This document shows, one piece after another, positions 25,815 to 62,552 of a stretch of 64,000 nucleotides of DNA. Each line of letters begins with the position of its first letter. The first letter of the stretch is position 1. The translations under genes and the position numbers were made by a program. The notes below the pieces were generated by a model, which saw only the letters and a list, made by a program, of their open reading frames with translations, was not told the DNA's origin and searched no databases. Where the stretch lies: the NCBI GenBank assembly GCA_041554135.1, contig JBFFML010000004.1, positions 37,340 to 101,339 on the forward strand. The letters run 5' to 3'. Source of the stretch: Thermoplasmata archaeon (GTDB lineage: Archaea; Thermoplasmatota; Thermoplasmata; UBA10834).

Positions 25815-26315
25815 TCAAACCGTCTCTTGGTCTATGAGCCAAAGCCGGTCGCCGACGTGGTGCAACGACGAGACGACCTTGCCCTTCGGCTTCCTGGCCA
25901 TATCGCTCGCAGAGACCGACGCCCTGCCCACGGCCAGCGGCCGGAGGTTCTTCTCGTCCCGGATCCACACGAAGTCGCCGACGGCGACTTCCGAGTCGAC
26001 ATCCACGACGCCGGGTCCCATTATGTCCGCGCCGTTGGCGACGAACGGGACGGCCCCCATGTCCACGGTCACGAATCTCTTCTTGGCGCCGTACTCGAGT
26101 ATGCCGCGCACGGTGAGGAAGGGCTCGTCGCCCGAGACGATTGCCAGCAAGGCCCCGTTCACGAAGAGTATGTCGAAGTCGGGTGTCTCCGCCATGTCGA
26201 CCGTGTCGCCCACATCGAAGGTGGTCGTGCCGAGGACCTCGTCGAGCCTGGACGACAGATTCTCGATCTCCTTCTGACGTAGCCTGTGTCTCTTCCGGAC
26301 CCTCAGCGCGGGCAT
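25815..26315 (-). CDS. PUA-domain RNA-binding protein (MCT-1/Tma20-like archaeal type)
   Basis: ATG at 26315 inside track ORF 25815..27080 (MPALRVRKRH...). The PUA-like C-terminus is FVTVDMGAVPFVANGADIMGPGVV...GDFVWIRDEKNLRPLAVGRA. The start shares one nucleotide with the upstream TPR gene's stop (TGATG). Confidence 0.7.
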   Translation of the reverse strand: MPALRVRKRHRLRQKEIENLSSRLDEVLGTTTFDVGDTVDMAETPDFDILFVNGALLAIVSGDEPFLTVRGILEYGAKKRFVTVDMGAVPFVANGADIMGPGVVDVDSEVAVGDFVWIRDEKNLRPLAVGRASVSASDMARKPKGKVVSSLHHVGDRLWLIDQETV

Positions 26316-28429: not shown

Positions 28430-28575
28430 TCGACCGTTCCATGCCTCCGGGAGTAGATATTATTTTTGAATGTGATGTCGGGACGGCGACCCGAGCGACC
28501 CGCTCCTGAGGCCTTCATATATACCCCAAACCTTATATTTATCGTAGGTGGTAATCGCCTGGGAAGTGCCTCGAT

Positions 28576-34868: not shown

Positions 34869-37800
34869 ATGTCAGCCGAACCACACCAACCATCAGGGAA
34901 TGCTGTCCACTCCACGGACAATGAATCGAAGATAGGACGGGGTTGGAATGTGGAGCCGCAGATAGGCGCGAACGCAAGGACGGTACTAGAGCGACGCTAC
35001 CTGAAGAAGGGAGAGGACGGCAAGGCCGCGGAGACGCCACGCCAGTTGTTCGAGCGTGTCGCACAAGCGATAGCCTCCGCAGAGGAGAGATATGGCAAAT
35101 CGGCCAAAGAGAGGGACGAGATTGCCGCTCGGTTCTACGAGATGATGGCCCGTCAGGAGTTCATGCCGAATAGCCCTACGCTCATGAACGCTGGCAGGGA
35201 GTTGGGACAGCTATCGGCGTGTTTCGTCCTTCCTGTGGGCGACTCGATGGAGGAGATCTTCGACTCCATCAAATACACTGCCCTCATACACAAATGCCTC
35301 GTCCCGGAGACACTGGTGATGACCGACTCCGGATGCATGAACCTCGGTTCGGTACGGAACGACACATGGATTGAGACGCACGAGGGCATGGACCAGGTGA
35401 TTGAGAACCACGACAACGGCATCCAGAGAGTCATGACGGTGGAGACGGACGAAGGGTACTCAATCACTGGGACGCCGCAACACCGCCTGATGACGGAGCA
35501 GTCTGGAAGGGAACTCGAGTGGAAGCAGATGGGTGATCTTGAGGAGGGGGAGACGCTCATCATGAAGCTCGGAGGATGGCTGGGCGGCACACTTCACAGC
35601 GTCGAGCGCGACATATCGGACTTCTCCGACTCTTTCGACGAGAGCGTGGTAAGAGCGGATGAACGCGCGCTGTGCGAATTCCTCAGGAACGCATTCACAG
35701 GGCACGGATGGGTGACCGACGAGGGCATCGTTCGACTGGAGCTGGACTCCGAGAGCGTCGCCCGGGAGCTTCAGGTGATCCTGTTCTATGTCGGAGTGCC
35801 CACGCACAGGGACGGCCCGAGCCTGACCGTGTGCACAGCTTCGGGGTTCCAGACGTTCAAGGAGAAGATAGGCTTCGACTCAATGCTCCTCTCGCGTAGG
35901 CTGGCGGGCGTTGGTCCCGACGACGTCCTGCCGGGCCTCAGGGCCGCAGAGGTGGCCCACGAAGAGGCGGACGACCAGGGGTTCTACAGAGTCAAGGTGA
36001 AGCGCGTGACGACCTGTGGCGACAGAGGCGTAGTCGACCTCACAGTGAAAGGGAGTCATGCATACCTGGCCAACGGTTTCGTATCTCACAACAGTGGTGG
36101 AGGGACGGGATTCAGCTTCTCGCGCCTCCGACCGGCGAGGGACTGCGTGAAGAGCACCGCAGGCGTGTCGAGCGGTCCGATCTCCTTCATGGAAGTCTTC
36201 AACACCGCGACCGAGACGATCAAGCAGGGCGGCACCCGCAGGGGCGCCAACATGGGCATACTGAGAGTCGACCATCCGGACATACTCGAGTTCATCACGT
36301 GCAAGCGAGACAGTACCAAGCTGACGAACTTCAACATATCAGTGGCGCTCACGGACAGGTTCATGAGCGCCCTCGAGAGGGACGAGGAGTACGACATGGT
36401 CAACCCCAGGTCCGGCGAGGTCGTGTCGAAGATGAAGGCCAAGAAGGTCTTCGACCTGATCGTCAACATGGCATGGCGGAACGGCGAGCCTGGGATCGTC
36501 TTCATAGACAGGATAAACAGGGACAACCCGACGCCGTCGGTCGGCGAGATCGAGAGCACCAATCCCTGCGGGGAGCAGCCGCTCCTGCCGTACGAGTCCT
36601 GCAACCTCGGCTCCATAAACCTCGCCAAGATGATGAAGATGCAGGACGGGCGCGTGGTCGTGGACTACGACCGGCTGAGGGAGACAGTCCATTTGGCCGT
36701 CCGATTCCTGGACGACGTGATAGACGTGAACAAGTACCCGTTGGAGCAGATTGACCACATGACCAAGGCCAACCGGAAGATCGGCCTTGGGGTGATGGGC
36801 TTCGCGGACATGTTGCTGCACATGGGCGTACGCTACGACTCCGACGAGGCTTCGGGCCTTGGCGGTGAGCTCATGGCATTCATAGACGAGGAGGGGCACA
36901 GGGCCTCCCAGGAGCTGGCGGACGAGCGTGGGAGTTTCCCCAACTTCGAGGAGAGCACCTTGTCCAAGCGGTATGACAGGTTGCGCAACGCGACGGTGAC
37001 GACGATAGCCCCCACCGGCACCATAAGCATCATCACGGGGGCGTCCAGCGGCATAGAGCCCATATTCGCAGTCGCCTATGTCCGGAACGTAATGGACAGG
37101 GACATCCTCCCGGAGGTCAATCCGATATTCGAACAGATGGCGAAGGAGCGGGGGTTCTACTCTGAGGACATGATGAAGGAGATCGCGGCCCAGGGCTCCG
37201 TCAAGGACGTCAAGGGCGTCCCTGAGGATCTCAGGGAGCTTTTCGTGACCGCCCTGGACATAACGCCCGAGGCGCACGTCCGGATGCAGGCCGCCTTCCA
37301 GGAACACACCGACAACGCCGTCTCCAAGACGGTCAACTTCCCAAAGGAGGCGACGACCGAGGACGTCGAGCGCGTCTACATGCTGGCCCACAGACTCGGC
37401 TGCAAGGGCGTGACGGTTTACAGGTACGGCAGCAGGGACGACCAGGTACTCAGCGTCGGAGACGGCGCTGCCAAGAAGGGGGCCGAGGAGGGCGACGGGA
37501 AGGCTCAGGAGGACGCCCGCGCCCCCAGACCGAGGCCCTACAGGACGACTGGCACGACACAGCGGATCGAGACTGGATGCGGACACCTGTATGTGACGAT
37601 CAACGAGGACGAGAACGGCCTCTGCGAGGTGTTCACGCAGATGGGCAAATCGGGGGGATGCACGGCCTCGCAGTCCGAGGCAATAGGCAGGCTGCTGTCG
37701 CTGGCCCTCAGATCCGGGATCGACCCGGAGTCCATAACCAAGCAGCTGAGGGGCATAAGATGCCCCTCGCCGCTCTGGCAGCCGGGCGGTATGGTGCTGT

Positions 37801-38030
37801 CGTGCAGCGACGCGGTGGCCAAGGCGCTCGACCGGTACGTGAACGAGCGCTCATCACGGGTGGGATCGACCGCGAGTCCGCCCTCTGGCCTGGATACCGC
37901 CACCGTCGAGAAGCAGAACCATGTCGACAGGGGGGACGTGTGTCCCGAGTGCCCGGAGTGCGGGAGCATGGTGGAGTACGTCGAAGGATGCGTCGTCTGC
38001 AGGACCTGCGGATACTCTCGCTGTTGGTGA
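34869..38030 (+). CDS. nrdJ: Class II (adenosylcobalamin-dependent type) ribonucleotide reductase, intein-containing, with C-terminal zinc ribbon
   Basis: Extein motifs NSPTLMNAG, ACFVLPV, GGGTGFSFSRLRP, STNPCGEQPL and TIAPTG. C-terminal CPECPECG...CVVCRTCG. The extein is 787 aa once the 266-aa insert is removed. Confidence 0.9.
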   Translation: MSAEPHQPSGNAVHSTDNESKIGRGWNVEPQIGANARTVLERRYLKKGEDGKAAETPRQLFERVAQAIASAEERYGKSAKERDEIAARFYEMMARQEFMPNSPTLMNAGRELGQLSACFVLPVGDSMEEIFDSIKYTALIHKCLVPETLVMTDSGCMNLGSVRNDTWIETHEGMDQVIENHDNGIQRVMTVETDEGYSITGTPQHRLMTEQSGRELEWKQMGDLEEGETLIMKLGGWLGGTLHSVERDISDFSDSFDESVVRADERALCEFLRNAFTGHGWVTDEGIVRLELDSESVARELQVILFYVGVPTHRDGPSLTVCTASGFQTFKEKIGFDSMLLSRRLAGVGPDDVLPGLRAAEVAHEEADDQGFYRVKVKRVTTCGDRGVVDLTVKGSHAYLANGFVSHNSGGGTGFSFSRLRPARDCVKSTAGVSSGPISFMEVFNTATETIKQGGTRRGANMGILRVDHPDILEFITCKRDSTKLTNFNISVALTDRFMSALERDEEYDMVNPRSGEVVSKMKAKKVFDLIVNMAWRNGEPGIVFIDRINRDNPTPSVGEIESTNPCGEQPLLPYESCNLGSINLAKMMKMQDGRVVVDYDRLRETVHLAVRFLDDVIDVNKYPLEQIDHMTKANRKIGLGVMGFADMLLHMGVRYDSDEASGLGGELMAFIDEEGHRASQELADERGSFPNFEESTLSKRYDRLRNATVTTIAPTGTISIITGASSGIEPIFAVAYVRNVMDRDILPEVNPIFEQMAKERGFYSEDMMKEIAAQGSVKDVKGVPEDLRELFVTALDITPEAHVRMQAAFQEHTDNAVSKTVNFPKEATTEDVERVYMLAHRLGCKGVTVYRYGSRDDQVLSVGDGAAKKGAEEGDGKAQEDARAPRPRPYRTTGTTQRIETGCGHLYVTINEDENGLCEVFTQMGKSGGCTASQSEAIGRLLSLALRSGIDPESITKQLRGIRCPSPLWQPGGMVLSCSDAVAKALDRYVNERSSRVGSTASPPSGLDTATVEKQNHVDRGDVCPECPECGSMVEYVEGCVVCRTCGYSRCW
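35295..36092 (+). mobile_element. Intein (266 aa) inserted between ...ALIHK and SGGGTGFSF...
   Basis: Block A CLVPETLVMTDSG and block B ITGTPQHRLMT. A single LAGLIDADG-like motif, FLRNAFTGHGWV. Terminal block VVDLTVKGSHAYLANGFVSHN is followed by +1 Ser. Coordinates were derived from residue counts (143-408). Confidence 0.85.
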
Positions 38031-51347: not shown

Positions 51348-51391
51348 CCAGCAAATAATATGTGCCTCACGCGCTCTTCACTCCATGTCAC

Positions 51392-51913
51392 ATGAACGAT
51401 TCGATCGCGGATCCGCCCGCATGCGCGCCAGAAGCTTGGATCGTAAGGGTTCGACCGGGTAGCGCGAGCGAGCTCAAGGACAGGCTCCTGCGGCTGGCCG
51501 AGGCGAGTGGCACGGACCTGCTCGTACTCCGCGCGGAGATGACTTTCGGGCCGGACCACATCACCAGCGCGCTGTATCACGCCAAGAAGGCGTTCGACGA
51601 GAAACGCAACTCCTCGGACTCACTCGCGATGGAGACACTCCTGTACGCGTCTGGCGAGAGGCAGCTGAGCAGCGCGATAGACAAGATGGGCGTGGGCGAC
51701 GACTCCGAGGAGGTGGTCGTCGTACGGCTCGTCGACGGTGGGTTCTCCCCTGAAGAGGGCTGGAAACCCCTGGCCCAGTGGGACACCGAGACCGTGGAAG
51801 AGAGGTTCCTCAGGTTCGGCATTTCGCGTGAGGAGCTCGGGACGGTGCGCAGGGAACGATGGGCCGAGCTGGTACTCGAGAAGGTGGCCGCAGTCGACAT
51901 CATCAAGAGGTAG
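51392..51913 (+). CDS. cgi121: KEOPS complex subunit Cgi121-like
   Basis: ITSALYHAKKAF...AMETLLYASGERQLSSAIDKMG resembles the conserved Cgi121 core. ATG at 51392 is preferred over GTG at 51362. Confidence 0.6.
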   Translation: MNDSIADPPACAPEAWIVRVRPGSASELKDRLLRLAEASGTDLLVLRAEMTFGPDHITSALYHAKKAFDEKRNSSDSLAMETLLYASGERQLSSAIDKMGVGDDSEEVVVVRLVDGGFSPEEGWKPLAQWDTETVEERFLRFGISREELGTVRRERWAELVLEKVAAVDIIKR

Positions 51914-51995: not shown

Positions 51996-52895
51996 ATGGC
52001 TGTCGTCATAGAGTGCGTGCCCAACTTCAGCGAGGGTCGCGACAAGAAGGTCATAGACAAGATCGCGTACTCCATCAGCTCCGTCCCTGGTATCAAGATA
52101 TTGGATGTCGAGATGGACCCCGACCACAACAGGTCCGTGGTCACTTTCGTCGGAAACAAGGACAGCATCCAGGAGGGGGCGTTCAGAGGGGCCAGGGCGG
52201 CGGCCGAGCTCATCGACCTCACGAAGCACAAGGGCGAGCACCCGAGGATGGGCGCGTTGGACGTCCTGCCGTTCATACCGATCCAAGGGGCCTCCATGCA
52301 GGACTGTGTCGAGATAGCCAACCGCGTGGGTGAGCGCATCGCGAAGCGGCTCAAGATACCCGTGTACCTGTACGAGTCGGCAGCGCGTAGGCCCGAGAGA
52401 AGGCAGCTCGAGAAGGTCCGGAAGGGGCAGTTCGAGGGACTGCGGGAGGCGATAACGAAGGATGACACGCGCTATCCCGACTTCGGCCCCAGGGCGGTCC
52501 ATCCGACCGCGGGCGCGGTTGCGGTGGGCGCGCGAATGCCGCTCATAGCCTTCAACGTCAACCTGAGGTCCTCGGACCTCGAAGCCGCGAAGGCGATCGC
52601 CAAGAAGATACGCGCCAGCAACGGTGGGATGCCACACCTCAAGGCGCTCGGCTTCAACCTCAAGGACAAGGGCATGGTGCAGGTCTCGATGAACCTGACG
52701 GACTACACCGTCACGCCCATCTCCAAGGTGTTCGACGAGGTCAGAAAGGAAGCTGAGGCCAGGGGTATCGACGTCGCCGGAGGAGAGATCATAGGGCTAA
52801 TACCTCTGGACGCCGTCTGCGACATAACCGCAAGGTTCCTGATGCTTGAACAGTTCTCAAGCACGCAAATCCTCGAGAGGCGGATCTGGTGCTGA
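51996..52895 (+). CDS. Glutamate formimidoyltransferase (FtcD N-terminal-type, stand-alone)
   Basis: N-terminal IECVPNFSEGRD is the hallmark. Length 299 aa. Confidence 0.85.
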   Translation: MAVVIECVPNFSEGRDKKVIDKIAYSISSVPGIKILDVEMDPDHNRSVVTFVGNKDSIQEGAFRGARAAAELIDLTKHKGEHPRMGALDVLPFIPIQGASMQDCVEIANRVGERIAKRLKIPVYLYESAARRPERRQLEKVRKGQFEGLREAITKDDTRYPDFGPRAVHPTAGAVAVGARMPLIAFNVNLRSSDLEAAKAIAKKIRASNGGMPHLKALGFNLKDKGMVQVSMNLTDYTVTPISKVFDEVRKEAEARGIDVAGGEIIGLIPLDAVCDITARFLMLEQFSSTQILERRIWC

Positions 52896-53530
52896 GGGAC
52901 GTCGAGGCGCTCCGACGGTTCTGCGAAGAACTCTCGTCAGACGAGCCGTCGCCTGGGGGCGGCACGGCCTCTGCGGCGTCAGGCGCCATGGCGGCGTCGC
53001 TGTTGGCCATGGTCTGCCGACTGACCCTCAAGAACAAGAAGCACGAGGAGAACTGGACTGAACTGGCGATGCTGACGGACTCCCTCATGACACTCAGGGA
53101 CGAGCTTGTGGTGCTCGCGCAGGAGGACGCCGATGCCTACGACGGCCTCGTCGAGGCCATCCGGAGACGAAGGTCGGATGATTCGGAGGAGGCTCGCGGC
53201 GCCGAGAAGGCTGCGCTCGAAGAGGCGATAGAGGTGCCGCAGAAGACGGCGGGCGCATGCGCTCGCATACTGGAGATCTCCGCCAGGGTCGCCGACATCG
53301 GCACCAGACGAGCGTATTCCGATGTCATCGTGGCGATCCACATGGCGGCGGCCGGCATCCATGGCGCGCACGCCAATGTCCGCATAAACCTGGACGATTC
53401 GGACGACGAGGCGCTCAGCGAGGAGGTCAGGAAGGACATGAAGGACCAGGCAGAGCGGGCATCCAGAGCGGAGAAGGAGGCGCTGTCGAAACTCTCGCCG
53501 ACACCCCCGCAGCCGCAGAGCGCGGGATGA
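52889..53530 (+). CDS. Formimidoyltetrahydrofolate cyclodeaminase (FtcD C-terminal-type, stand-alone)
   Basis: Motif PSPGGGTASAASGAMAASL. GTG at 52889 overlaps the preceding stop by 7 nt. Confidence 0.8.
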   Translation: MLRDVEALRRFCEELSSDEPSPGGGTASAASGAMAASLLAMVCRLTLKNKKHEENWTELAMLTDSLMTLRDELVVLAQEDADAYDGLVEAIRRRRSDDSEEARGAEKAALEEAIEVPQKTAGACARILEISARVADIGTRRAYSDVIVAIHMAAAGIHGAHANVRINLDDSDDEALSEEVRKDMKDQAERASRAEKEALSKLSPTPPQPQSAG

Positions 53531-53653
53531 CGACCTTATCAGAAATGATAGAGATGTCGATACCTTTAATACGAGTGGCAGGAATGAGAAACACCTGGAT
53601 GTTCTGCCATGGGGCTTCACCCCTAGGCACACCGAAAAGGAGCTTGGTCTGAG

Positions 53654-56600
53654 TTGGCGGGCAACTATCTTAAGAGCCTACAGCTCCAGAAGCAACTCGA
53701 GCAACGCGCCAAGGAGGCGGCGAAGAGCAAGAGGGTTGCTGAGGAGGAGCGGGAGGCCCTCGAAGGCTTCCTAGAGACCTGCAAGGAGAGTGATGTCGAC
53801 CTCTCAGGCACCGACAGGCTCCTCAGCGAGTTCTCGGCGTCCATGAACGCCAAGGATTATCAATCGGCGATCGGCCTCGCCCGCAAGGCGATCGAGGCCG
53901 CGAAGAGCGCATACCTGCAGAAGATATCCGATGTGGCCGACTCCGTCGATTCGCTGTTGAGACTCATCAAGGGCGACGAGGGAGAGGCAGGCAGCGCGAA
54001 GGGGATCCTGGAGAACAGCAAGGAGCTGGCGCTCAAGGACGACCTCGAAGGCGCGATGAAGAAGGCCAAAGAGGCGTACAACTCGGCGGAGAGGGCATTC
54101 CACGAGCATTTCTCCGCGAGGCTCTCCCAGGCCCAAGAGGTCATCAACCAGGCAAGGGAGATGGGTGAGGACGTCAGCCTTTTCGAGGACCTCGTGACCA
54201 GGTCCAAACACGCGTTGGAGAAGCAGGAGTACGAATCAGGCATATCGCAGCTCACGGAGGCGCTCGAGGGCGCCGGGGAGAACCTGAAGTCGCAGATAGA
54301 GGACGGCATCGATAAAGCGGAGGACCTCACGCGCGCAGGCGAGGGCATCGGCGCCGACATGGACAGGGTCAAGGGCCACACCGAGAGGGCCAAGAGCGCC
54401 CTGGAGACGCTCCGATACAGGGACGCCCTCAGCTATTCCAAGAGAGCCTCCAGCGAGGCCGAGAAGGCAATCTCCAACCAGCTCGGCGACATGACCAGGG
54501 ACATCAAGGAGAGCATGCGCTCGATGAACACGCTCGACGAGGACTCGCGCGAGACGAAGGCACTGCTCGACGAGGTTCAGGACGCCGTCAAGGAGAAGCG
54601 AGTGCAAGAGGCGATCGAGAAGTTCAACGAGGCCAAGGACAAGATACACAGGATCCATTTCCAGACAGTACTCGGCGTCATAGGCAAGGCCAAGGACAAG
54701 TTCGTCCTCGCCAAGAAGGTGGGCGTCGACATGAGCGACGCGATCAAGATGCTGAACGCCTCGAGGGAGAACCTGAAGAAGGGCATGTTCGAGGACGCCA
54801 TAAGGATGGCTGAGGAGAGCGAGGACGCGGTCGAGAAGGCGCTTCAGGTGTTCTACAGGGCGCGCGACGAGCTCGTCGAGCTCAGCAAGGCGATGAAGAC
54901 CGCGAGCGACCTCGGCCACGACGTAAGCGAGTACAAGGAGCTCCTCGTACAGGCCAAGAAGGCGTTCGGGAAGAAGGATTTCGAGGCGTCGTCGAAGGCA
55001 TCCTCGGAGGGTACCGCGAAAGCGAGGAAGGTCATCTACGACGCCGCTTTGGCCAAGACAGAGGAGGCCGACAGAATCATCAAGCTCGGCATAGGGATAG
55101 GCGCCGAGGTGACCGGAGCGGAGGATATCCTCCGCAGGGCTACGGAAGCCATGCCAGGCGAGAACCTCGCCCAGGCGGTCTCGCTGGCGGAGGAGAGCGC
55201 CTCAGCGGCGAGGTCCGCTGTCTCATCGTCGCTCACGGAGAGGCTTGGCAACATAGAGGATTTCGTCGGGGGCTTCGCCCAGGAGGACGAGGTCGTCGAG
55301 AGGGTGCGTGGACTGCTCGAGGAGGCCAAGTCGCATTTGGCCAAGAGCGAGTTCGAGGATGCGCGTCGGCTCGTGCAGGAGATAACCTCCAGCCTCGAAG
55401 GCATGGGCCAGGAGGAGAGCGAACGGCTTGTCGCGGCAGCGCGCGACAGGATCGATATGGCGAAGTCCATAGGTGTGGAGCCGAAGGAGCTGGAAGGGCT
55501 CGAGGAGGGCATGACGCTCGCCCAGGGACAGATAGATAAGAAGGCCTACGAGGAGGCCATCTCCAGGATCAAGGCCGTGGTGAAGGCCGCGGACGACCGT
55601 ATGTTCAAACTGCTACAGGCTGAATTCTCCTCGGTCAAGGACTCGATCGAGGAGGCGAAGACCTTCGGGATCGACGTCAGCGACGCCAGGGACAGGCTCA
55701 AGGACGCCCGGGCCAAGGCGGAATCCCGCGAGTTCGCGGAGGCGCGCGAGATATGTGTCGGGACCAAGGACATCATCGACGAGAAGATAACCAGACACGA
55801 CGACATCAAGAAGAAGATCGAGAGGGCCGAGGAGCTCATACAAGAGGCGTCGAAGAACATAGTCGACGTGTCCAGCCTGACGGATTGGCTGGACCAGGGC
55901 AAGCGGGCGTTCTCGGACGGTCAGCTGGACCAGGCCGAGGCGAAGCTGGACAACACGATCGATGAGACGGAGAAGCGCCTCGCCATGTACCTTGCCGCGA
56001 AGTTCATACTCGCGTCCAAGGAGAACCTGGACCTCGCGACCTCCCATGGCATCGAGGCGGGCGAGGCGGAATCCCTCCTGGTGAAGGCGAAGGAGGAGAT
56101 GAAGAGCAAGGACTACGACGAGGCGCTGGAGCACAGCAGGAAGGCGAGCGAGCTCGTCGCCGCGGCCTTGGCCGATGGTGTCGGCAACATCGTCCAGGAC
56201 TTGCGCAGGATGATCACGGACGCGAAGAACGTCAGCATAGACACCTCAGGCCCCGAGAAGCTCGTCGAGAAGGCGGCGGGACTCATCGGCGGCAAGGACT
56301 TCGCCGGGGCGCTCGCGTGCGTGGACTCGGCGAAGGAGGACATCGACCAGGCAAGGAGCCTGAGCTCCAACGCCGCCGCGGAGATAAAGACCGCGAGGAA
56401 CAACCTGAAGGAAGCCGAGATGCTCAGCATGGAGGTCGGCGACGCCCGCGAGAAGCTGGACCAGGCGATCGAGGCCCTCACGAGGCATCAATACGCGATA
56501 GCCCTCGAACTGGCCAGGAAATCCTCCGAGGCTTCCGTCGAGGCCGCGAAATCGGCCGTCTGGAAGACGCTCGAGGAATTCAAGGCCAAGGTGGACAAGG

Positions 56601-58177
56601 CATCCGAGGAGGGCATGCCCGTCGGCAAGGCCGACAGATGCGTCGCGGACGGCGTAGAGGCGTTCAAGGCCGGCAGATACGAGGAATCGCTCAGGTTCGC
56701 CATGCAGTGCGAGGTCGAGATGGAGCGTGCGGAGCTCCAGAAGGAGATAAGCACCAGGGCCGTGGAGAACGCCCGGCGGAAGATGGACGACGCCACGGCG
56801 GAAGGCATCAAGGCGGACATGGCGATATCGGTCGTCGAGGCTGCCGAGGAACTCCTCGCAAAGGGCAAGTATCCGGAGGCGCTCACGGCGGCGATCGACA
56901 GCGGGGACGTGCTGCACGAGATAAGGGAGAGCTTCGACAGCGCTCGGATAGCCTTCGGCGCTGCTAGGGAGCAGATAGAGAGGCTGAGCAAGGTCAACAT
57001 AGACACCTCCGAATGCGACAGGATCCTGCTGACCGCCAACGAACAGCTCTCGGCACAGGACTTCGACAAGTTCCACGACACCCTGGCGATGTGCTCGACG
57101 AAGGCTGGGGCGTTGTTCGAGGGATCCATAAGCGCCCTCGTCGACGAGACGAGGGAGTTGATATCGAGGGCCAAGTCGATGGGCATAAACACGAAGGGTT
57201 GCGAGGACCTGCTGGAGGTGGCGCAGACCTCCCTCTCCGAGAAGCTCTGGGACTTCGCATATCAGCAGGCGCAGGATTGCAGGGCGAAGTGCGGCGAGCT
57301 GATCGACAAGAAGCTCGGCGGGCTCGCCCGGGAGGCGGAGAGCCGGCTCGACGTGCTCGGCCACCTCGGCACGAGCGTCAAGACGATCAAGAAGGAGATC
57401 GAGAAGGCGAAGTCGCTGGGAAGCTCCGGCGACCATGTGAAGACCTTCGAGACACTCATGGGCATCGACCAGGAGATAGCTCTCCTGGAGGAGTCCAACA
57501 AGAAGTACGTGGACATATCCATAGCCGCGGAGAGCGCCATAGAGAACCTGCGGAGCTTGGGCGGCTCGGTCAAGGAGGCGGAGAGGCTTCTCGCCCTGGC
57601 CGACCTCGAGAAGGAGAAGGACTACGACTCCGCGATAGAGATGGTCGCCGAGGCCCTCGACACGGCCCAGACGGACATCGAGACGTTCGCGCCGGACATA
57701 GGCCTCTCGATAGAGTCGGATGGGCTGCAGGAGGGGGCGAGGGGAGAAATCGTCATAGTCCTTCGGAACGAGGGCAAGGCCGCGGCGAGATCCGTCAGAG
57801 TGGACCTGTCGGGTGAATTCGAGGTCGCGGACATATCGGACGTCCCATCTCTGGAACCAGGCAAAGAGGGACGAGTGGTCGCGGGCATCGTCCCGAAGGT
57901 CCAGGGCGAGCTGTCCATCGACGCGGCCGTCTCGTCGAAGAGACCGTTCGGCGCCACCACGGACACCTTCGAGCTGCAGGGGAAGCTCAACGTGTATCCC
58001 GCGGGACCCCCGTTCAAGATATCCCGCGCGAAGGATGTCTCCCGATGCCAGCTATGCCACGGCAGAATAAAGTCCGGGTTCGACATAGTGTCGTGCAGGT
58101 GCGGCACGGACCTGCATCTGATGTGCGCGAAGAGATCGCAGAGCTGCCCGGTGTGCGGTCAGAGGTTCGAGTTCTAG
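53654..58177 (+). CDS. Giant (1507 aa) alpha-helical repeat protein with C-terminal beta-sandwich (CARDB-like) domain and C4HC3 zinc finger
   Basis: TTG start with aaggag about 12 nt upstream. There is no signal peptide or TM helix. About 20 degenerate units look like G[IV]D[VT]S-x7-10-A[KR]-x2-[LF]-x2-[KR][DE][YF]-x-[EDS]A. Then comes GEIVIVLRNEGKAAARSVRVDLSG...LEPGKEGRVV. The protein ends CQLCHGRIKSGFDIVSCRCGTDLHLMCAKRSQSCPVCG. Confidence 0.7.
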   Translation: MAGNYLKSLQLQKQLEQRAKEAAKSKRVAEEEREALEGFLETCKESDVDLSGTDRLLSEFSASMNAKDYQSAIGLARKAIEAAKSAYLQKISDVADSVDSLLRLIKGDEGEAGSAKGILENSKELALKDDLEGAMKKAKEAYNSAERAFHEHFSARLSQAQEVINQAREMGEDVSLFEDLVTRSKHALEKQEYESGISQLTEALEGAGENLKSQIEDGIDKAEDLTRAGEGIGADMDRVKGHTERAKSALETLRYRDALSYSKRASSEAEKAISNQLGDMTRDIKESMRSMNTLDEDSRETKALLDEVQDAVKEKRVQEAIEKFNEAKDKIHRIHFQTVLGVIGKAKDKFVLAKKVGVDMSDAIKMLNASRENLKKGMFEDAIRMAEESEDAVEKALQVFYRARDELVELSKAMKTASDLGHDVSEYKELLVQAKKAFGKKDFEASSKASSEGTAKARKVIYDAALAKTEEADRIIKLGIGIGAEVTGAEDILRRATEAMPGENLAQAVSLAEESASAARSAVSSSLTERLGNIEDFVGGFAQEDEVVERVRGLLEEAKSHLAKSEFEDARRLVQEITSSLEGMGQEESERLVAAARDRIDMAKSIGVEPKELEGLEEGMTLAQGQIDKKAYEEAISRIKAVVKAADDRMFKLLQAEFSSVKDSIEEAKTFGIDVSDARDRLKDARAKAESREFAEAREICVGTKDIIDEKITRHDDIKKKIERAEELIQEASKNIVDVSSLTDWLDQGKRAFSDGQLDQAEAKLDNTIDETEKRLAMYLAAKFILASKENLDLATSHGIEAGEAESLLVKAKEEMKSKDYDEALEHSRKASELVAAALADGVGNIVQDLRRMITDAKNVSIDTSGPEKLVEKAAGLIGGKDFAGALACVDSAKEDIDQARSLSSNAAAEIKTARNNLKEAEMLSMEVGDAREKLDQAIEALTRHQYAIALELARKSSEASVEAAKSAVWKTLEEFKAKVDKASEEGMPVGKADRCVADGVEAFKAGRYEESLRFAMQCEVEMERAELQKEISTRAVENARRKMDDATAEGIKADMAISVVEAAEELLAKGKYPEALTAAIDSGDVLHEIRESFDSARIAFGAAREQIERLSKVNIDTSECDRILLTANEQLSAQDFDKFHDTLAMCSTKAGALFEGSISALVDETRELISRAKSMGINTKGCEDLLEVAQTSLSEKLWDFAYQQAQDCRAKCGELIDKKLGGLAREAESRLDVLGHLGTSVKTIKKEIEKAKSLGSSGDHVKTFETLMGIDQEIALLEESNKKYVDISIAAESAIENLRSLGGSVKEAERLLALADLEKEKDYDSAIEMVAEALDTAQTDIETFAPDIGLSIESDGLQEGARGEIVIVLRNEGKAAARSVRVDLSGEFEVADISDVPSLEPGKEGRVVAGIVPKVQGELSIDAAVSSKRPFGATTDTFELQGKLNVYPAGPPFKISRAKDVSRCQLCHGRIKSGFDIVSCRCGTDLHLMCAKRSQSCPVCGQRFEF

Positions 58178-59532
58178 CCTGAGCCACCGATCCTCGCCTT
58201 GGATATCCTCAGCGGGGGCGTGAGCACACCGAAGGCCTGTCTCGGTTCCGAGCCGATCATGTCCACTCTCGACAGCAGCTCGGTCACGTCCAGGCCCATG
58301 GTAGCTTGCCGGACCGCGGGGCCGATCGCGCCGTCCTTGACGACATAGCCCTCCATCATCAACGCCGAGAGCTCGCCCGTCGCAAGGTTGGGATAATCGA
58401 AAGTCAACCGGAGGTACACGCCATCCGAGCATTCCCGGATCATCTCCTCCGAGGAGATGTCTCCGCTCTCCACGACAAGGTTCGAGAAGGAGATGCCTGG
58501 CGGATGTCGGAAGCTCCAGACGGCACCGCCCCTTGACGAGTTGCCTGTGTTGTCGACGGAGTCCTTTCCCGCGGTGTATGAGTCGTGGAGATATGTGCTG
58601 AGGACGCCCCGATCGATGACGGCCTTGCTCTTGGACGCGACACCCTCGCCGTCGAACGAAGAACTCCCGGACGACCACGGCAGCGTCGGGTCATCATGGA
58701 TGGACAGAGCGTCAGCTCCCAGAGGGGTCCCCAGCCTGCCCGCGAGGAAGCTCCTGCCCCTCTGTATGTTCTCGGCGTTGGCGCCGCCGCCGATCGAGCT
58801 CGCAAGTATCCAGGCCGCTGCTATCGGGTCGAGTATGACTGGGTGGTCTCCGGTCTCCACCTTCGTCTGCCGGAGGCCGCTGATAGCGTGGCGCATGGCG
58901 CTGCCGCCAACGCTCCTGGGGGAGCTCCTGTCGAGCTTCCTGCCGGACGCGAAGTCGAGGCCTGAGAACATCTGCCCGTCCGAGCGCGCGACGGCCTCAG
59001 CCATCACGTCATACGCGGTGACCTTCTGGTCCACGAGCAGGCCGTTGGTGTTGGCGAGCGCCACCTCGCTCGCCGCGACCATCAGCGAGGCGTTGACCGA
59101 CGATATCCTGCTGTCGGATGCCGCCTCGTCCGCCAGCTCGATGAGGAGCTCGACGGCCTCGTCCGGTTGCAGGCGCGCCGTCGACGCGTCATAGAGGCCG
59201 TCCTGGGGAGAGGGCTTGCCAGGGTCTGGGAGCCCTTTGAAGTCTTCGTCGGCTGTGCCTCCCCTCGCCTGAGATATCGCCATCTCCGCTGCCCGGGTGA
59301 CCTCCCTCTCGTCGTGGCTCGTGCAGTACGCGAACCCCGAGCTTCCGCGGTCGAACACCCTTATGGCCAATCCAGGGTCGTCGGAGAAGCTCGCCTGCTT
59401 CATGGAGCCCCTCTCGATCTCGGCTGTCGTGGCGTGTGTGCTCATGGCGAGGACGTCGCAGATGACGCCTCCCAACGAGCGGACCCTGTCCACCGTCCTC
59501 CCGGCGAGTTCTGACATCTCGTTCATTGGCAC
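58174..59532 (-). CDS. pmbA: PmbA/TldE-family metalloprotease modulator subunit
   Basis: TldD/PmbA-fold sequence without an HExxxH motif. It lies directly downstream of the tldD-like gene, which is the usual pairing. Confidence 0.75.
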   Translation of the reverse strand: MPMNEMSELAGRTVDRVRSLGGVICDVLAMSTHATTAEIERGSMKQASFSDDPGLAIRVFDRGSSGFAYCTSHDEREVTRAAEMAISQARGGTADEDFKGLPDPGKPSPQDGLYDASTARLQPDEAVELLIELADEAASDSRISSVNASLMVAASEVALANTNGLLVDQKVTAYDVMAEAVARSDGQMFSGLDFASGRKLDRSSPRSVGGSAMRHAISGLRQTKVETGDHPVILDPIAAAWILASSIGGGANAENIQRGRSFLAGRLGTPLGADALSIHDDPTLPWSSGSSSFDGEGVASKSKAVIDRGVLSTYLHDSYTAGKDSVDNTGNSSRGGAVWSFRHPPGISFSNLVVESGDISSEEMIRECSDGVYLRLTFDYPNLATGELSALMMEGYVVKDGAIGPAVRQATMGLDVTELLSRVDMIGSEPRQAFGVLTPPLRISKARIGGSG

Positions 59533-59539
59533 CGCCTCC

Positions 59540-60934
59540 TCATGCTACGCCCCCGATGACCATGTCTTCGACCCTGACATGAGGGCCGCCGTCTGTGGTC
59601 CTGGCGTCCTGACCCGATTTGCCGCAGTATCCCGGGTCGACGAGCCTGAAATCGTCCGCTATCCCTGTGATGTTGTTGAGCACTTCGAGTATGATGCCCG
59701 TCAGGATGGCATCCCTGTACCGCTGGCCCAGCTCCCCGTTCCGGATCTCGTAGGCCTCGTCGCACTTGAACATGAACTGACCTTTCGCGGGTTCAACGTA
59801 GCCGTACTGACCTCCCCTTATCAGCAGGCCGGACCTCGTGTCCCCTATCAGCTCGTCCTTCTTCACGTCCCCCGCCTCTATGAACGTGTTGCTCATCCTT
59901 ATGATCGGGGGATTGTAGTACGACTCCGCACGAGAGGCCCCGTTGGCAGGCGTCGCCATCCTGCTGCTGGTCTCCAGGTTGTGCATGAACCCCTTCAGGA
60001 CGCCGCGCTCTATCAGGACGTGCCGGGTCGCCTGAACGCCCTCCCAATCGTATGGGAAGAAGCCGAAGGTGTCAGGGATGGTGGGGTCGTCCACGAGGGT
60101 CACGCACTCGTTCGCCACCTTCGTGCCTTCCAACCCTTCGAGCACTGACGCCCCCGCCAGCACGGCGTCCGCCTCGCAAGCGTGCCCGAACGCCTCGTGT
60201 GCCAGGAGGCCTGTCATCTGATTGTCCAGGATACATGTGAACTTCCCCGCAGGCACGGGCTTCGAATCCAAGAGGCGGATGGCCTGTGCGGCCGCCTCCT
60301 CGCCGACGGTGGCGGCCACTTCGGTCCTCATGAGCTCGTACCCGCCGACGTTGCCGACCGAATGGTGCCCTCTCTGCACGACGCCGTCCGACCTGCCCCA
60401 AGCGGCGCAAGAGGCTATCGTCCAGAACTCCTTCGTGCCCACGAGCGAGCCGAAGGAGTTGGCGACGACCCTGTCGCCCTCGAAATCCTCGTACCTAGTG
60501 TTTCGGCTCGATATTCTCGGATCGTGTGATCTCATCGACTCGTCGAGCGCGAGCGCGAACGACAGCTTCTCCTCCATGGGAACTGAGGAAGGCGCTGTCC
60601 TGCAGGCGTATCTGCTCTTGGTCCTCACGGTCGGGGTGGGCTTCATCTCGAACTGCACTTTCGCCCTCTCACGGCTGACCTTAGCCAACCTCACGGCCTT
60701 CTCAGAGGCGTCCAGCACATCGCGCCTGTCGAGCGAGTTGCAGACCGCGAAACCCCAGCCCCCCTTGCTGAACGCGCGCACGCCGCAGCCAGACTCTATC
60801 CTTGAGGTCACCGTCTTCGTCTTGCCATCCATGACGACGACGCTGACGCCAGAGACCGACTCGAGCCTGACATCAGCGAATTCTGCGCCCAGCTTCGTGC
60901 AGTTGTCAACAGCTGCCTCTGCCACATCATCCAA
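59540..60934 (-). CDS. tldD: TldD-family zinc metalloprotease
   Basis: Active-site motif HEAFGHACEAD, plus a GxC-type C-terminal region (GYCGKSGQ). Confidence 0.85.
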   Translation of the reverse strand: MDDVAEAAVDNCTKLGAEFADVRLESVSGVSVVVMDGKTKTVTSRIESGCGVRAFSKGGWGFAVCNSLDRRDVLDASEKAVRLAKVSRERAKVQFEMKPTPTVRTKSRYACRTAPSSVPMEEKLSFALALDESMRSHDPRISSRNTRYEDFEGDRVVANSFGSLVGTKEFWTIASCAAWGRSDGVVQRGHHSVGNVGGYELMRTEVAATVGEEAAAQAIRLLDSKPVPAGKFTCILDNQMTGLLAHEAFGHACEADAVLAGASVLEGLEGTKVANECVTLVDDPTIPDTFGFFPYDWEGVQATRHVLIERGVLKGFMHNLETSSRMATPANGASRAESYYNPPIIRMSNTFIEAGDVKKDELIGDTRSGLLIRGGQYGYVEPAKGQFMFKCDEAYEIRNGELGQRYRDAILTGIILEVLNNITGIADDFRLVDPGYCGKSGQDARTTDGGPHVRVEDMVIGGVA

Positions 60935-60992
60935 AGACTCATCCCCGATGAGGTGTCGTAATGGCTGCCGGCAAGTTCAATCTATCGCAGCG

Positions 60993-62552
60993 TCAGGCCC
61001 TCTGGAAATCACACGTGCCCGCGGCCACGTCCACAATCGTGCGGTCCTGTACCATGTCAGCTATCGCGCCGATGTCCGCCGACATGGATCGGTCCTCCTC
61101 CAGCCGCGGCACCTTCGACCTGATCGCGTCCCTCACGCTCTCTATCGGCGGGCTGGAGCTGAGTGACACGAAGTCGAGCCCCTGGGCGGCGGCGAGTATC
61201 TCGATCGCTATCACGCGCGTCACGTTCTCGACGATCTTCCTGGCTTTCCACGCGGCCGTCGTCCCCATGCTGTTATGGTCCTCCTGTCCCGCACTCGTCG
61301 ATATGGAATCCGCTGAGGCGGGATGCACCAGCACCTTGTTCTCCGACACAATCGAAGCAGCGACGTACTGCGGCACCATCATGCCCGAGCTGAGGCCGCC
61401 GTGCCTCGTCAGGAACGGTGGCAGGCCGCTGAGTTTGTGGTCGAGGAGCCGGTACAGTCGCCTCTCGGAGAATCCGCCGAGCTCATGCACCGCGAGCCCC
61501 AGGTAGTCCGTGGCCAAAGCTACCGGCTGGCCGTGGAAGTTGCCTCCGGACATGACTTTCTCCTCGTCCGCGAAGTACAGGGGGTTGTCCGTGGCGGAGT
61601 TGACCTCCACGCCGAGGACCTCCATGGAGTACCACACGGCGTCGAGCGTCGCCCCGATGACCTGGGGGATGCATCTCAGCGTGTAGGCGTCCTGAACCCT
61701 CGCGCAGTGCCTGTGGGACAACATGATCTCGCTGTCCTTCAGCAGGGTCATCATGTTCCTCGCCACCGCCATCTGACCCTTGTGCGGCCTAACCCTCGAT
61801 ATGGCCTCCTCGAACGCGGCCGATGTCCCCTTCAAAGCCTCCAGCGACATCGCCGCGGCGATCTGGGCCGCGTCGACCAGGTTCGCGGCGTCCTCCGCCG
61901 CCAGGCAGCCCAAGGCGGTCATCGCCTGCGTGCCGTTTATGAGCGATATGGCCTCCTTGGGCATGAGCTCCAAGGGTGCAAGGCCCGCATCCGAGAGAGC
62001 ATCGGCGGCGTCCCTCGGCCCGGCATCCGACTCGACATGGCCCTCGCCGATCATGACCAGGGCCATGTGGGCGAGCAACGCGAGGTCCCCGCTTGCGCCC
62101 ACCGAGCCCTGTCGCGGCACGACTGGATGGACGCGGGAGTTGAGCATCGACACGAGCATCTCGACTATCTCAGGGCGGACCGCGGAATACCCCTTCGCGA
62201 GGGCGTTCGCCCTCAGCAACATCATCGCCCTCACCACCTCCATGGGCAGCGGCTCGCCTACCGCACAGGCGTGGCTCCTCAGCAGGTTGACCTGAAGGTC
62301 CTTCAGATCGTCGTTCGGCACACGGACATCCAGGAAGTCGCCGACGCCGGTGTTGACGGCGTACACGGGCGCCTCCCTCGTGAGGAGCCCTTCTAGCGAC
62401 GACCTGCAACTCGCCATCCTTGAACGCACGTCGGGGGGGATCTCGACGGCCGCGCCATGGCGCGCTATCCTCACGACCCTGTCCAGCGAAAGGGTCGCCC
62501 CGTCTATCCTGATAGGCCCTGACTGCGCCTCCACTGACTCGGTCACGGACAC
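60993..62552 (-). CDS. hutH: Histidine ammonia-lyase
   Basis: MIO-forming motif GSVGASGDLA, plus NTGVGDF and SAGQEDH. Confidence 0.9.
   Translation of the reverse strand: MSVTESVEAQSGPIRIDGATLSLDRVVRIARHGAAVEIPPDVRSRMASCRSSLEGLLTREAPVYAVNTGVGDFLDVRVPNDDLKDLQVNLLRSHACAVGEPLPMEVVRAMMLLRANALAKGYSAVRPEIVEMLVSMLNSRVHPVVPRQGSVGASGDLALLAHMALVMIGEGHVESDAGPRDAADALSDAGLAPLELMPKEAISLINGTQAMTALGCLAAEDAANLVDAAQIAAAMSLEALKGTSAAFEEAISRVRPHKGQMAVARNMMTLLKDSEIMLSHRHCARVQDAYTLRCIPQVIGATLDAVWYSMEVLGVEVNSATDNPLYFADEEKVMSGGNFHGQPVALATDYLGLAVHELGGFSERRLYRLLDHKLSGLPPFLTRHGGLSSGMMVPQYVAASIVSENKVLVHPASADSISTSAGQEDHNSMGTTAAWKARKIVENVTRVIAIEILAAAQGLDFVSLSSSPPIESVRDAIRSKVPRLEEDRSMSADIGAIADMVQDRTIVDVAAGTCDFQRA

Follow-up and report, generated by a model that had tools for sequence, protein, structure and literature searches.

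A Thermoplasmata helical-repeat protein of constant length with a C-terminal RING finger, and its giant relatives in ubiquitin-like operons

A 64,000-nucleotide stretch of a Thermoplasmata archaeon genome (lineage UBA10834; assembly GCA_041554135.1, contig JBFFML010000004.1, forward strand 37,340 to 101,339), hereafter the window, carries a gene for a 1507-residue protein in which 21 degenerate helical units lie between a conserved N-terminal helix and a C-terminal module made of a beta-sandwich and a RING finger. We are confident that this gene, called the rod gene below after the predicted shape of its product, is real and strongly constrained, that its long helical-repeat product has conserved ends and a genuine finger of the RING superfamily, and that the protein belongs to a large uncharacterised family, some members of which are operon partners of an E1-like activating enzyme, a ubiquitin-like modifier (Ubl), an E2 conjugating enzyme and a JAB protease. 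The reading that we favour, with a probability of roughly 0.45, is a scaffold of fixed length with a ligase-type (E3-type) RING head. What is new is the undescribed repeat and its unusual fixed length; helical-repeat rods and RING scaffolds are already known kinds of protein.

The open reading frame (ORF) is uninterrupted over 1507 codons plus a stop and opens with TTG, a start that agrees with the N-terminal consensus MAGNYLKSLQL of 113 full-length homologues (1495-1575 aa, 26-77% identity), with which the protein can be aligned end to end. A first-pass annotation of this DNA, made from the letters alone, had described a cytoplasmic 1507-residue protein without transmembrane segments, and the later analyses agree: the soluble, acidic product (164.7 kDa, isoelectric point 4.95, rich in Ala, Glu, Leu and Lys) has no transmembrane or hydrophobic segment, the highest Kyte-Doolittle mean over 19 residues being 1.14. 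The same annotation could match the architecture to no described family. Searches with the whole protein returned no matches in NCBIfam or the PDB sequence set and only sub-threshold Prok-RING_1 and CARDB matches in Pfam, hidden Markov model (HMM) and structure searches placed the repeat unit in no well-characterised family, and the literature library that was searched held no paper on this family or on giant RING or repeat proteins in Thermoplasmata. The JGI name ‘molybdopterin synthase catalytic subunit’, which some homologues bear, is taken to be spurious; no such domain was found.

The repeat array and its predicted fold

HMM self-searches and MAFFT alignment place 21 units in register, each of 62-65 aa except the last, which has 54 (Table 1). 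Segment HMMs built from the family alignment return the same register every 62-65 residues irrespective of the unit used as seed. When each unit was scored with a leave-one-out HMM against 200 composition-matched shuffles, 18 of the 21 outscored every shuffle; R10 and R17 are borderline (one shuffle in 200 reached each), and R20 is not significant from sequence alone. The earlier count of about 20 degenerate repeats was close. The suggestion made with it, that the repeats are ancient or under selection since the DNA is not repetitive, is also borne out: Tandem Repeats Finder reports three trivial two-copy matches of 12-21 nt and nothing else, and the other units are only 5-24% identical to the first, which together indicate an ancient array.

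A consensus pooled from 4641 units has a hydrophobic residue at position 6, G-[AIV]-D-[VT]-[ST] at positions 7-11, a first helix (helix A, positions 11-25, with L16, L17, A20 and L24), a [GK]-D turn at positions 27-28 and, from position 29 onward, a second helix (helix B) that begins with [YF]-x-x-A. Every third or fourth residue of helix B is hydrophobic, right up to where the unit ends, which gives the helix a buried face over its full length. Both motifs picked out in the first-pass annotation, a G[IV]D[VTM]S turn and a K/D-Y-x-x-A signature, are real, but the second had been put at the end of a helix; as [GK]-D-[YF]-x-x-A at positions 27-32, it makes up the turn and the start of the long second helix.

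Two AlphaFold2 models (residues 1-800 and 741-1507, each from a 114-sequence alignment) have a mean predicted local distance difference test score (pLDDT) of 87.3 in both halves and a predicted template modelling score (pTM) of 0.38. They are strictly periodic: every unit has one helix of 15 residues and one of ~39, with 3 residues in the turn between them and 5 in the loop that follows, and a further helix at residues 2-45 precedes the array. This N-terminal helix carries the motif Y-[LV]-K-x-[LI]-Q-L-x-K-Q-L-E in all three clades described below. Its residues Q10, L11, K13, Q14 and E21 are invariant, and it is 50-62% identical even to that of Methanomassiliicoccales orthologues, whose repeats are 5-31% identical.

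Mean-field direct coupling analysis (DCA) was run on 2840 pairs of adjacent units from 144 homologues (effective number of sequences, Meff, 897), the units being mapped through the family alignment. The antiparallel A/B hairpin emerges from each half of the pair on its own (23-35, 13-39, 19-35, 12-42). Between neighbouring units, the C-terminal half of helix B couples antiparallel to the next helix A (59-21', 58-17', 62-13') and, shifted by ~17 residues, parallel to the next helix B (54-40', 61-40', 58-39'). Units i and i+3, paired as a control, scored lower (maximum 0.97 against 1.64; four scores above 0.7 against 14), and their couplings formed no coherent pattern.

Taken together, the helix lengths, the hydrophobic stripe on helix B and the DCA contacts lead to one continuous staggered three-helix bundle, and so suggest that the window protein is a spectrin-like rod. 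The N-terminal half of each helix B would pack against its own helix A, and the C-terminal half against helices A and B of the next unit. With a rise estimated at ~17 residues (~25 Å) per unit, the rod would be ~50-55 nm long if straight.

Spectrin-type rods (PF00435, EzrA, SbsC, S. aureus Ebh) have the same predicted connectivity, in which each long helix is shared by two successive bundles and every bundle is closed by a short antiparallel helix, so that the rod is extended. At an estimated ~0.4 Å per residue, the window rod would also extend about as far as spectrin repeats do. The units themselves differ, 62 aa here against 105 positions in the Pfam Spectrin model and about 126 aa in Ebh, and there is no significant sequence or fold match; moreover, the window family is archaeal, ends in a RING and lacks actin-binding, PH and cell-wall modules. 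Single units or single homologues give weak Pfam matches to EzrA, SbsC_spectrin-like and Spectrin (E 0.008-0.09). Membership of Spectrin PF00435 was rejected, the window protein having no such Pfam match and homologue P0107 reaching 17 bits (E 0.008) against a cut-off of 29.9. Foldseek searches of the N-terminal half against the PDB returned nothing significant (best E 0.14); designed helical repeats and the rods of EbhA (2dgj), beta2-spectrin (3edv, E 2.7), alpha-catenin, vinculin and dynein tails appear among the weak matches, all at E >0.1.

From helix A through the turn to the 13th residue of helix B, the hairpin resembles tetratricopeptide repeats (TPR, 34 aa) and MIT domains, with the small-residue pattern and D-Y-x-x-A in common. 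The 21-unit profile matches consensus TPR designs (E 1e-15), designer PPRs and, weakly, the Vps4 MIT domain (E 0.03), always within profile positions 6-41. This similarity speaks for a multivalent adaptor of TPR/MIT type, a chaperone or assembly platform whose 21 bundles bind client peptides and whose length is itself unimportant, as do the name ‘TPR repeat protein’ that JGI gives to several homologues and the fact that each orthologous unit retains its own identity across lineages. Single units nevertheless stay below the Pfam TPR and MIT thresholds, no Pfam family occurring in more than two of the 21 (PTS_IIA, PIG-S and TPR_12 in two each, TPR_12 at E 0.015). Covariation and helix lengths also point to staggered bundles rather than a superhelical solenoid with a concave groove, and a unit number frozen at 21 would be left unexplained. 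We regard such an adaptor as improbable, and we see in the unit a TPR/MIT-like hairpin with ~26 extra residues in its second helix, by which neighbouring bundles would be linked in the manner of spectrin; it belongs to neither the TPR nor the spectrin family. TPR membership was rejected on the unit length of 62-65 aa with a 39-residue second helix, on the scarcity of TPR_12 matches and on the staggered covariation contacts.

The unit HMM detects a single other protein among the 298 ORFs of the window (10762-11928, minus strand; 388 aa, C-terminal Anticodon_1; whole-protein E 1.1e-5). The unit had been reported twice in this protein; one copy is found, weakly (E 7.6e-4), while the second is marginal. 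The HEAT label that it had been given is not supported, since Pfam returns Anticodon_1 and no HEAT repeats.

The C-terminal module and relatives in ubiquitin-like operons

Beyond the last unit, AlphaFold2 predicts a beta-sandwich at residues ~1349-1458 (model residues 609-718 of the C-terminal half; pLDDT 77-87). An immunoglobulin-like (Ig-like) fold is supported by Foldseek, which matches the sandwich to Ig-like, MG, PapD-like, TRAP-beta, adaptin-appendage and NBR1 domains in the PDB. Membership of the CARDB family in particular is uncertain. The CARDB domain of PF1109 (3idu/2kl6) matches the model at E 2e-4 (TM-score 0.59-0.66), several other Ig-like families match it better, and the Pfam CARDB model (PF07705; cut-off 22.7 bits) scores 19.6 bits (E 1e-3) in the window protein and 27.3 bits in homologue P0017.

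The finger that follows has eight ligands (C1465, C1468, C1481, C1483, H1488, C1491, C1498, C1501), all invariant in 114 sequences, and their spacing, C-x2-C-x12-C-x-C-x4-H-x2-C-x6-C-x2-C, is identical in 160 of 160 RING-bearing family members. A profile of 40 family sequences matches the solved RING-H2 domains of ARK2C/RNF165 and Arkadia (E 2.8e-6 to 1e-5, profile positions 3-50), and further matches are to solved domains of RNF126, RNF24, HRD1, gp78 and RNF4. AlphaFold2 gives a beta-hairpin and a short helix at residues ~1477-1495 (pLDDT 76-87). By its spacing and its whole-domain similarity to solved RINGs, the finger is, on the evidence of sequence comparison, a member of the RING superfamily, and the CARDB-like sandwich and eight-ligand RING/PHD-like finger described in the first pass are thus both recovered. 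Where present, the RING (40-65% identity) is the second most conserved part of the protein after the N-terminal helix.

The best Pfam match of the finger is Prok-RING_1 (PF14446; residues 1464-1502, E 4.7e-5), which shares its C4HC3 arrangement, the type that a review assigns to prokaryotic RINGs (PMC11354881). Membership of Prok-RING_1 was rejected, however, as the window protein scores 23.7 bits against a gathering cut-off of 29.1; all rescanned homologues also fall below it (P0017, 24.8; P0120, 23.4; P0110, 17.7; P0112, 16.5). The domain is present in the precomputed annotation of many homologues. In RING-type E3s, the surface that binds E2 is made up of a hydrophobic side chain at C1+2, an aromatic one from the helix ahead of ligand 7, a proline that follows this ligand and, beyond ligand 8, a basic linchpin (PMC5654768). 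The window RING has L1467 at C1+2, CP at ligand 7 and R1504 at C8+3; its ligand 4 is a Cys, unlike that of RING-H2 domains.

Searched against 1.84 billion representative proteins, the 21-unit profile returned 1170 matches at E ≤ 1e-3, of which 359 reach E ≤ 1e-10 and 110 reach E ≤ 1e-30. Among the highest-ranking matches, most have a unit spacing of 58-67 residues, with lengths of up to 3100-5000 aa, and many end in a RING. The 62-aa unit was also seen in RING-less proteins of 2500-5000 aa (P0172, 3904 aa; P0297, 5000 aa; P0164; P0169).

Relatives with the same C-terminal module, 3019-3176 aa in length, are encoded directly after a ThiF (E1-like) gene. At locus L071 the order is ThiF, the giant (P0152, 3106 aa), an 84-aa Ubl ending ...PEGG-HGQRV, an E2 of the UQ_con family (53 bits, cut-off 27) and JAB. 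The order at L074 is the same (P0157, 3129 aa), with a 111-aa ORF in the Ubl slot, and at L075 the gene of the giant (P0187, 3019 aa) overlaps the end of ThiF, with a PAN-like AAA ATPase nearby. Among 80 metagenome loci gathered with an E2 alignment, many have a compact ThiF-Ubl-E2-JAB operon and others a partial one, often on short contigs. In nine loci (L078-L086) of the clade nearest L071, the RING of the giant lies immediately upstream of the Ubl gene; at L078 and L083-L086 its ORF encodes 3134-3176 aa and is cut by the contig end in four of the five. The last 215 aa of the window protein (last unit, sandwich and RING) align end to end with the C-terminus of P0152 (30.6% identity, E 1e-26), so the C-terminal module is homologous between the window protein and the operon-embedded giants. 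With longer relatives inside ubiquitin-like operons, the family probably includes very large archaeal ubiquitin-ligase scaffolds, and these double-length relatives argue for an E3-type role rather than a purely cytoskeletal one.

Two further arrangements were seen at such loci. The 111-aa protein in the Ubl slot of L074 (17514-17846, plus strand) has no recognisable beta-grasp; it looks helical, with a unit-like hairpin DIEVSEAERGLKEAFQELNRKHFDTAMEAA, and ends ...VVGGD. At L110 (17422-18507), a 362-aa protein with four units and a RING, and no beta-sandwich, lies ~7 kb from a compact ThiF-Ubl-E2-JAB operon.

E1, E2 and JAB genes also occur together in bacterial anti-virus defence of the CBASS-Cap2 or Bil type, and the ThiF of L071 has weak PADLOC matches to the CBASS ‘E1-E2’ (up to 38.8 bits) and BilD (16.7 bits) models, as its JAB has to PADLOC JAB models. 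A defence system of this type is nonetheless highly improbable here, and we rejected it: PADLOC returns nothing for the window protein, the operon E2 or the Ubl, the E2 is a UQ_con protein by Pfam, and the surroundings of the rod gene in ~60 species representatives are a conserved housekeeping block and no variable island.

One archaeal RING E3 already described is srfp, a small RING finger protein that Caldiarchaeum subterraneum and Asgard archaea encode in operons (PMC5654768); the same paper reports these components in Aigarchaeota and Asgard archaea. The window family is like the srfp systems in its cross-brace-type eight-ligand RING and, for the giant relatives, in an operon with a ThiF E1, a tailed Gly-Gly Ubl, a UBC-type E2 and a JAB/Rpn11-like protease. 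It differs in size, with 1500-3170 aa including a helical rod and an Ig-like domain against a ‘small RING finger protein’ (PMC5654768), in its C4HC3 ligands and shorter helix before ligand 7, in its Thermoplasmata lineage and in the position of the window orthologue outside an operon.

Orthologues, constant length and genomic setting

A first search gave 129 homologues, nearly all of 1495-1510 aa, from uncultured Thermoplasmata and named ‘hypothetical’. A scan of one genome per GTDB species gave 62 distinct loci, most of them with a rod gene and a few being repeat cross-matches to gene fragments on another contig. In 144 full-length homologues from uncultured Thermoplasmata and Methanomassiliicoccales, the 21 units are kept down to ~21% identity, and the pattern of unit lengths (62, 62, 62, 62, 62, 64, 62, 62, 61/62, 62, 65, 62, 62, 64, 62, 64, 64, 62, 62, 64, 54) is essentially invariant, with R1, R3, R6 and R7 identical in length in all 144. 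A unit number and unit lengths frozen over such deep divergence imply that selection has probably acted on physical length.

Three clades can be told apart by identity to the window protein and by gene order. In clade A (46-77%), the rod gene follows Hel308, Cgi121, FTCD_N and FTCD_C and is itself followed by convergent TldD, TldD, HutH and thiolase genes. In clade B (~26%), it follows SMC, ScpA and ScpB, with a convergent HutH downstream. The Methanomassiliicoccales proteins (21-23%; 1402-1444 aa) end after the sandwich, without the RING that clades A and B have, and their gene order is convergent LonB, Hel308 ... Cgi121, rod gene, then convergent ChsH2, thiolase and HMG-CoA synthase. The arrangement of cgi121, rod gene and convergent thiolase/HMG-CoA synthase is conserved synteny, and the FTCD, HutH and TldD genes, which the Methanomassiliicoccales locus lacks, are apparent insertions into this older block. 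The rod gene is vertically inherited in Thermoplasmata. cgi121 lies two genes upstream of the rod gene in the window and directly upstream in Methanomassiliicoccales (L067-L070). A kae1/tsaD gene and a bud32-like kinase gene lie ~4.5 kb downstream of the ubiquitin-like operon of L071 (22135-23993); this recurrence of KEOPS genes may be coincidence.

In clade B, the rod gene stands directly after smc-scpA-scpB on the same strand in 12 loci (L002, L003, L047-L052, L054, L056, L057, L064), for example with a gap of ~135 nt at L002 (2858-7865), and SMC identity across the 12 is 52-100%. This order, the position after cgi121 and Hel308 elsewhere, and the C4HC3 variant RING of Nse1 in the Smc5/6 complex could be taken as signs of a chromosome or nucleic-acid scaffold that works with SMC-ScpAB or with Hel308/KEOPS and has an Nse1-like RING. 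The protein is acidic, however, with no recognisable DNA- or RNA-binding domain, and Nse1 is absent from the best 60 PDB matches of the RING profile. The upstream neighbour varies by clade while the downstream HutH or thiolase block is kept, a sign of synteny drift rather than of a functional operon, and a gap of ~120-135 nt with a TATA-like box (Table 1) suggests that the rod gene has its own promoter. On balance a nucleic-acid scaffold seems quite improbable.

A purely structural or cytoskeletal rod, that is, a spectrin-like strut or membrane skeleton with RING and sandwich as interaction modules only, has more in its favour. The rod-type architecture and strictly conserved length fit it, as do vertical inheritance within a housekeeping block (LonB, Hel308, cgi121, rod gene, thiolase/HMG-CoA synthase), the RING-less Methanomassiliicoccales orthologues that keep everything else, and the weak fold-level likeness to EbhA, spectrin, alpha-catenin and vinculin rods; cultured Thermoplasmata, moreover, mostly lack a cell wall. 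Yet none of the Foldseek matches of the rod half is significant, and the searches turned up no domain that would bind actin, tubulin or membranes, no amphipathic anchor and no self-assembly module. Where the RING is present its ligands are invariant and its conservation is second only to that of the N-terminal helix, and paralogues are embedded in E1-Ubl-E2-JAB operons. We consider a rod of this kind unlikely, and the cytoskeletal role that had been floated for the protein has no direct support, no polymerisation or membrane-binding module having been found.

The window (G+C ~61%) contains the archaeal marker genes LonB, Hel308-type helicase, Cgi121, RtcB and an intein-containing ribonucleotide reductase. 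The large subunit of the last (34869-38030, plus strand; 1053 aa) is interrupted by the intein, with Intein_splicing at aa 182-408 and a C-terminal TSCPD domain. On the minus strand at 17867-21298 lies a 1143-aa protein with several N-terminal zinc ribbons (DZR, Zn_ribbon_3, Zn_Ribbon_1) and no domain assigned to the rest of its length; a protein of 1650 aa that resembles it, and has TPR and a lamin-tail domain besides multiple zinc ribbons, is encoded at L076 (14624-19576), convergent to the rod-RING relative P0158. A canonical TPR protein of 704 aa (26315-28429, minus strand) is overlapped by a 771-aa ORF without a Pfam match (26141-28456, plus strand), probably a high-GC shadow ORF.

Table 1. 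Rod gene, parts of its product and adjoining features in the window (nucleotide positions refer to the window)
Feature	Nucleotides	Strand	Residues	Basis or remark
cgi121	51362..51913	+		two genes upstream of the rod gene
Formiminotransferase FTCD_N/FTCD and cyclodeaminase FTCD_C	51996..53530	+		histidine catabolism; 5' flank of rod gene in clade A
Candidate archaeal TATA-like box TTTAATAC	53567..53574	+		read from sequence, in the 123-nt gap 5' of the rod gene; putative promoter element
GGAG, possible Shine-Dalgarno element	53639..53642	+		read from sequence, 11 nt before TTG; putative role
Complete rod-gene coding sequence	53654..58177	+	1507 aa + stop	ORF and homologue alignment
Conserved N-terminal helix, NYLKSLQLQKQLEQRAKEAAK...	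53654..53773	+	1-40	most conserved segment of the protein
21-unit helical array	53774..57703	+	41-1350	HMM register, shuffles, AlphaFold2, covariation
Unit starts, R1 to R21	53774, 53960, 54146, 54332, 54518, 54704, 54896, 55082, 55268, 55454, 55649, 55844, 56030, 56216, 56408, 56594, 56786, 56978, 57164, 57350, 57542	+	41, 103, 165, 227, 289, 351, 415, 477, 539, 601, 666, 731, 793, 855, 919, 981, 1045, 1109, 1171, 1233, 1297	
Ig-like (CARDB-like) beta-sandwich	57704..58030	+	1351-1459	AlphaFold2 strands, Foldseek
C4HC3 RING finger	58031..58174	+	1460-1507	ligand span C1465-C1501, nt 58046-58156
HutH-type ammonia-lyase and TldD/PmbA pair	58174..62552	-		3' flank of rod gene in clade A

A scaffold with a RING head

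In the favoured reading, the N-terminal helix would be a docking or anchoring element, the Ig-like beta-sandwich would bind a partner or substrate, and the rod would act as a ruler that keeps the RING head at a set distance from whatever the N-terminus binds. The RING may recruit a charged E2-type enzyme carrying a ubiquitin-like modifier, so that the window orthologue would have E3 activity. The earlier suggestion of a scaffold or giant adaptor fits the evidence.

Listerin (Ltn1) and other giant eukaryotic RING E3s offer an analogy, with a conserved anchor at the N-terminus, a RING at the C-terminus and, between them, a long spacer of helical repeats and a small globular domain. In listerin the spacer sets the distance from anchor to site of ubiquitylation. 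Its repeats are of HEAT/ARM type against the 62-aa unit here, no sequence or fold relationship was found, and the window rod, at ~50 nm if extended, would be far longer than a ribosome.

Several results weigh against a scaffold with an E3-type RING head. Tblastn and profile searches found no E1, E2, Ubl or JAB in the 64-kb window, nor within 6-10 kb of the orthologue at more than 60 loci. None of 81 E2 clusters could be assigned to the four complete chromosomes of the orthologue-bearing lineage (CP070748.1, CP070736.1, CP070732.1, OY970070.1) or to the 4.2-Mb P0158 genome, in a search that reached ~49% identity only. In the RING itself, ligands 6 and 7 flank a helix that falls four residues short of its counterpart in RING-H2 E3s and shows no Trp, a residue that contributes to E2 binding from the helix before ligand 7, and most close orthologues have Ser in place of the hydrophobic residue at C1+2. 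The Methanomassiliicoccales orthologues keep the N-terminal helix, all 21 units and the sandwich without a RING, which indicates a conserved core function independent of the RING. As to the rod, its geometry is derived indirectly from helix lengths and couplings, the pTM of the models being 0.38, and just three inter-unit couplings exceed the control maximum, moderate support for packing between units.

A fuller version of the scaffold reading would make the Thermoplasmata proteins, as rulers of fixed length with ~21 or ~46 units of 62 residues, the RING E3s of a eukaryote-like E1-E2-Ubl-JAB system outside Asgard/TACK. The window protein would then be a vertically inherited, trans-encoded housekeeping E3 that holds its RING ~50 nm from its docking helix and modifies targets on a large cellular structure. 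We put this version forward tentatively and with some doubt.

Neither Pfam nor NCBIfam nor the PDB sequence set contains the 62-residue unit, although no fewer than 1170 clusters of very large proteins are made from it; where a source name was seen for these proteins, it was ‘hypothetical’ or something as general as ‘TPR repeat protein’. A unit number and length kept fixed over deep divergence are unusual among repeat proteins. Homologous RING modules occur on proteins of 165-350 kDa, some of them encoded between E1 and Ubl genes in Thermoplasmata operons. If these modules are active, giant scaffold-type RING E3s would not be a purely eukaryotic invention, and one more archaeal phylum would join those in which UBC-type ubiquitylation is documented. 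The conserved rod of ~50 nm is also a candidate for an internal structural element in wall-less cells.

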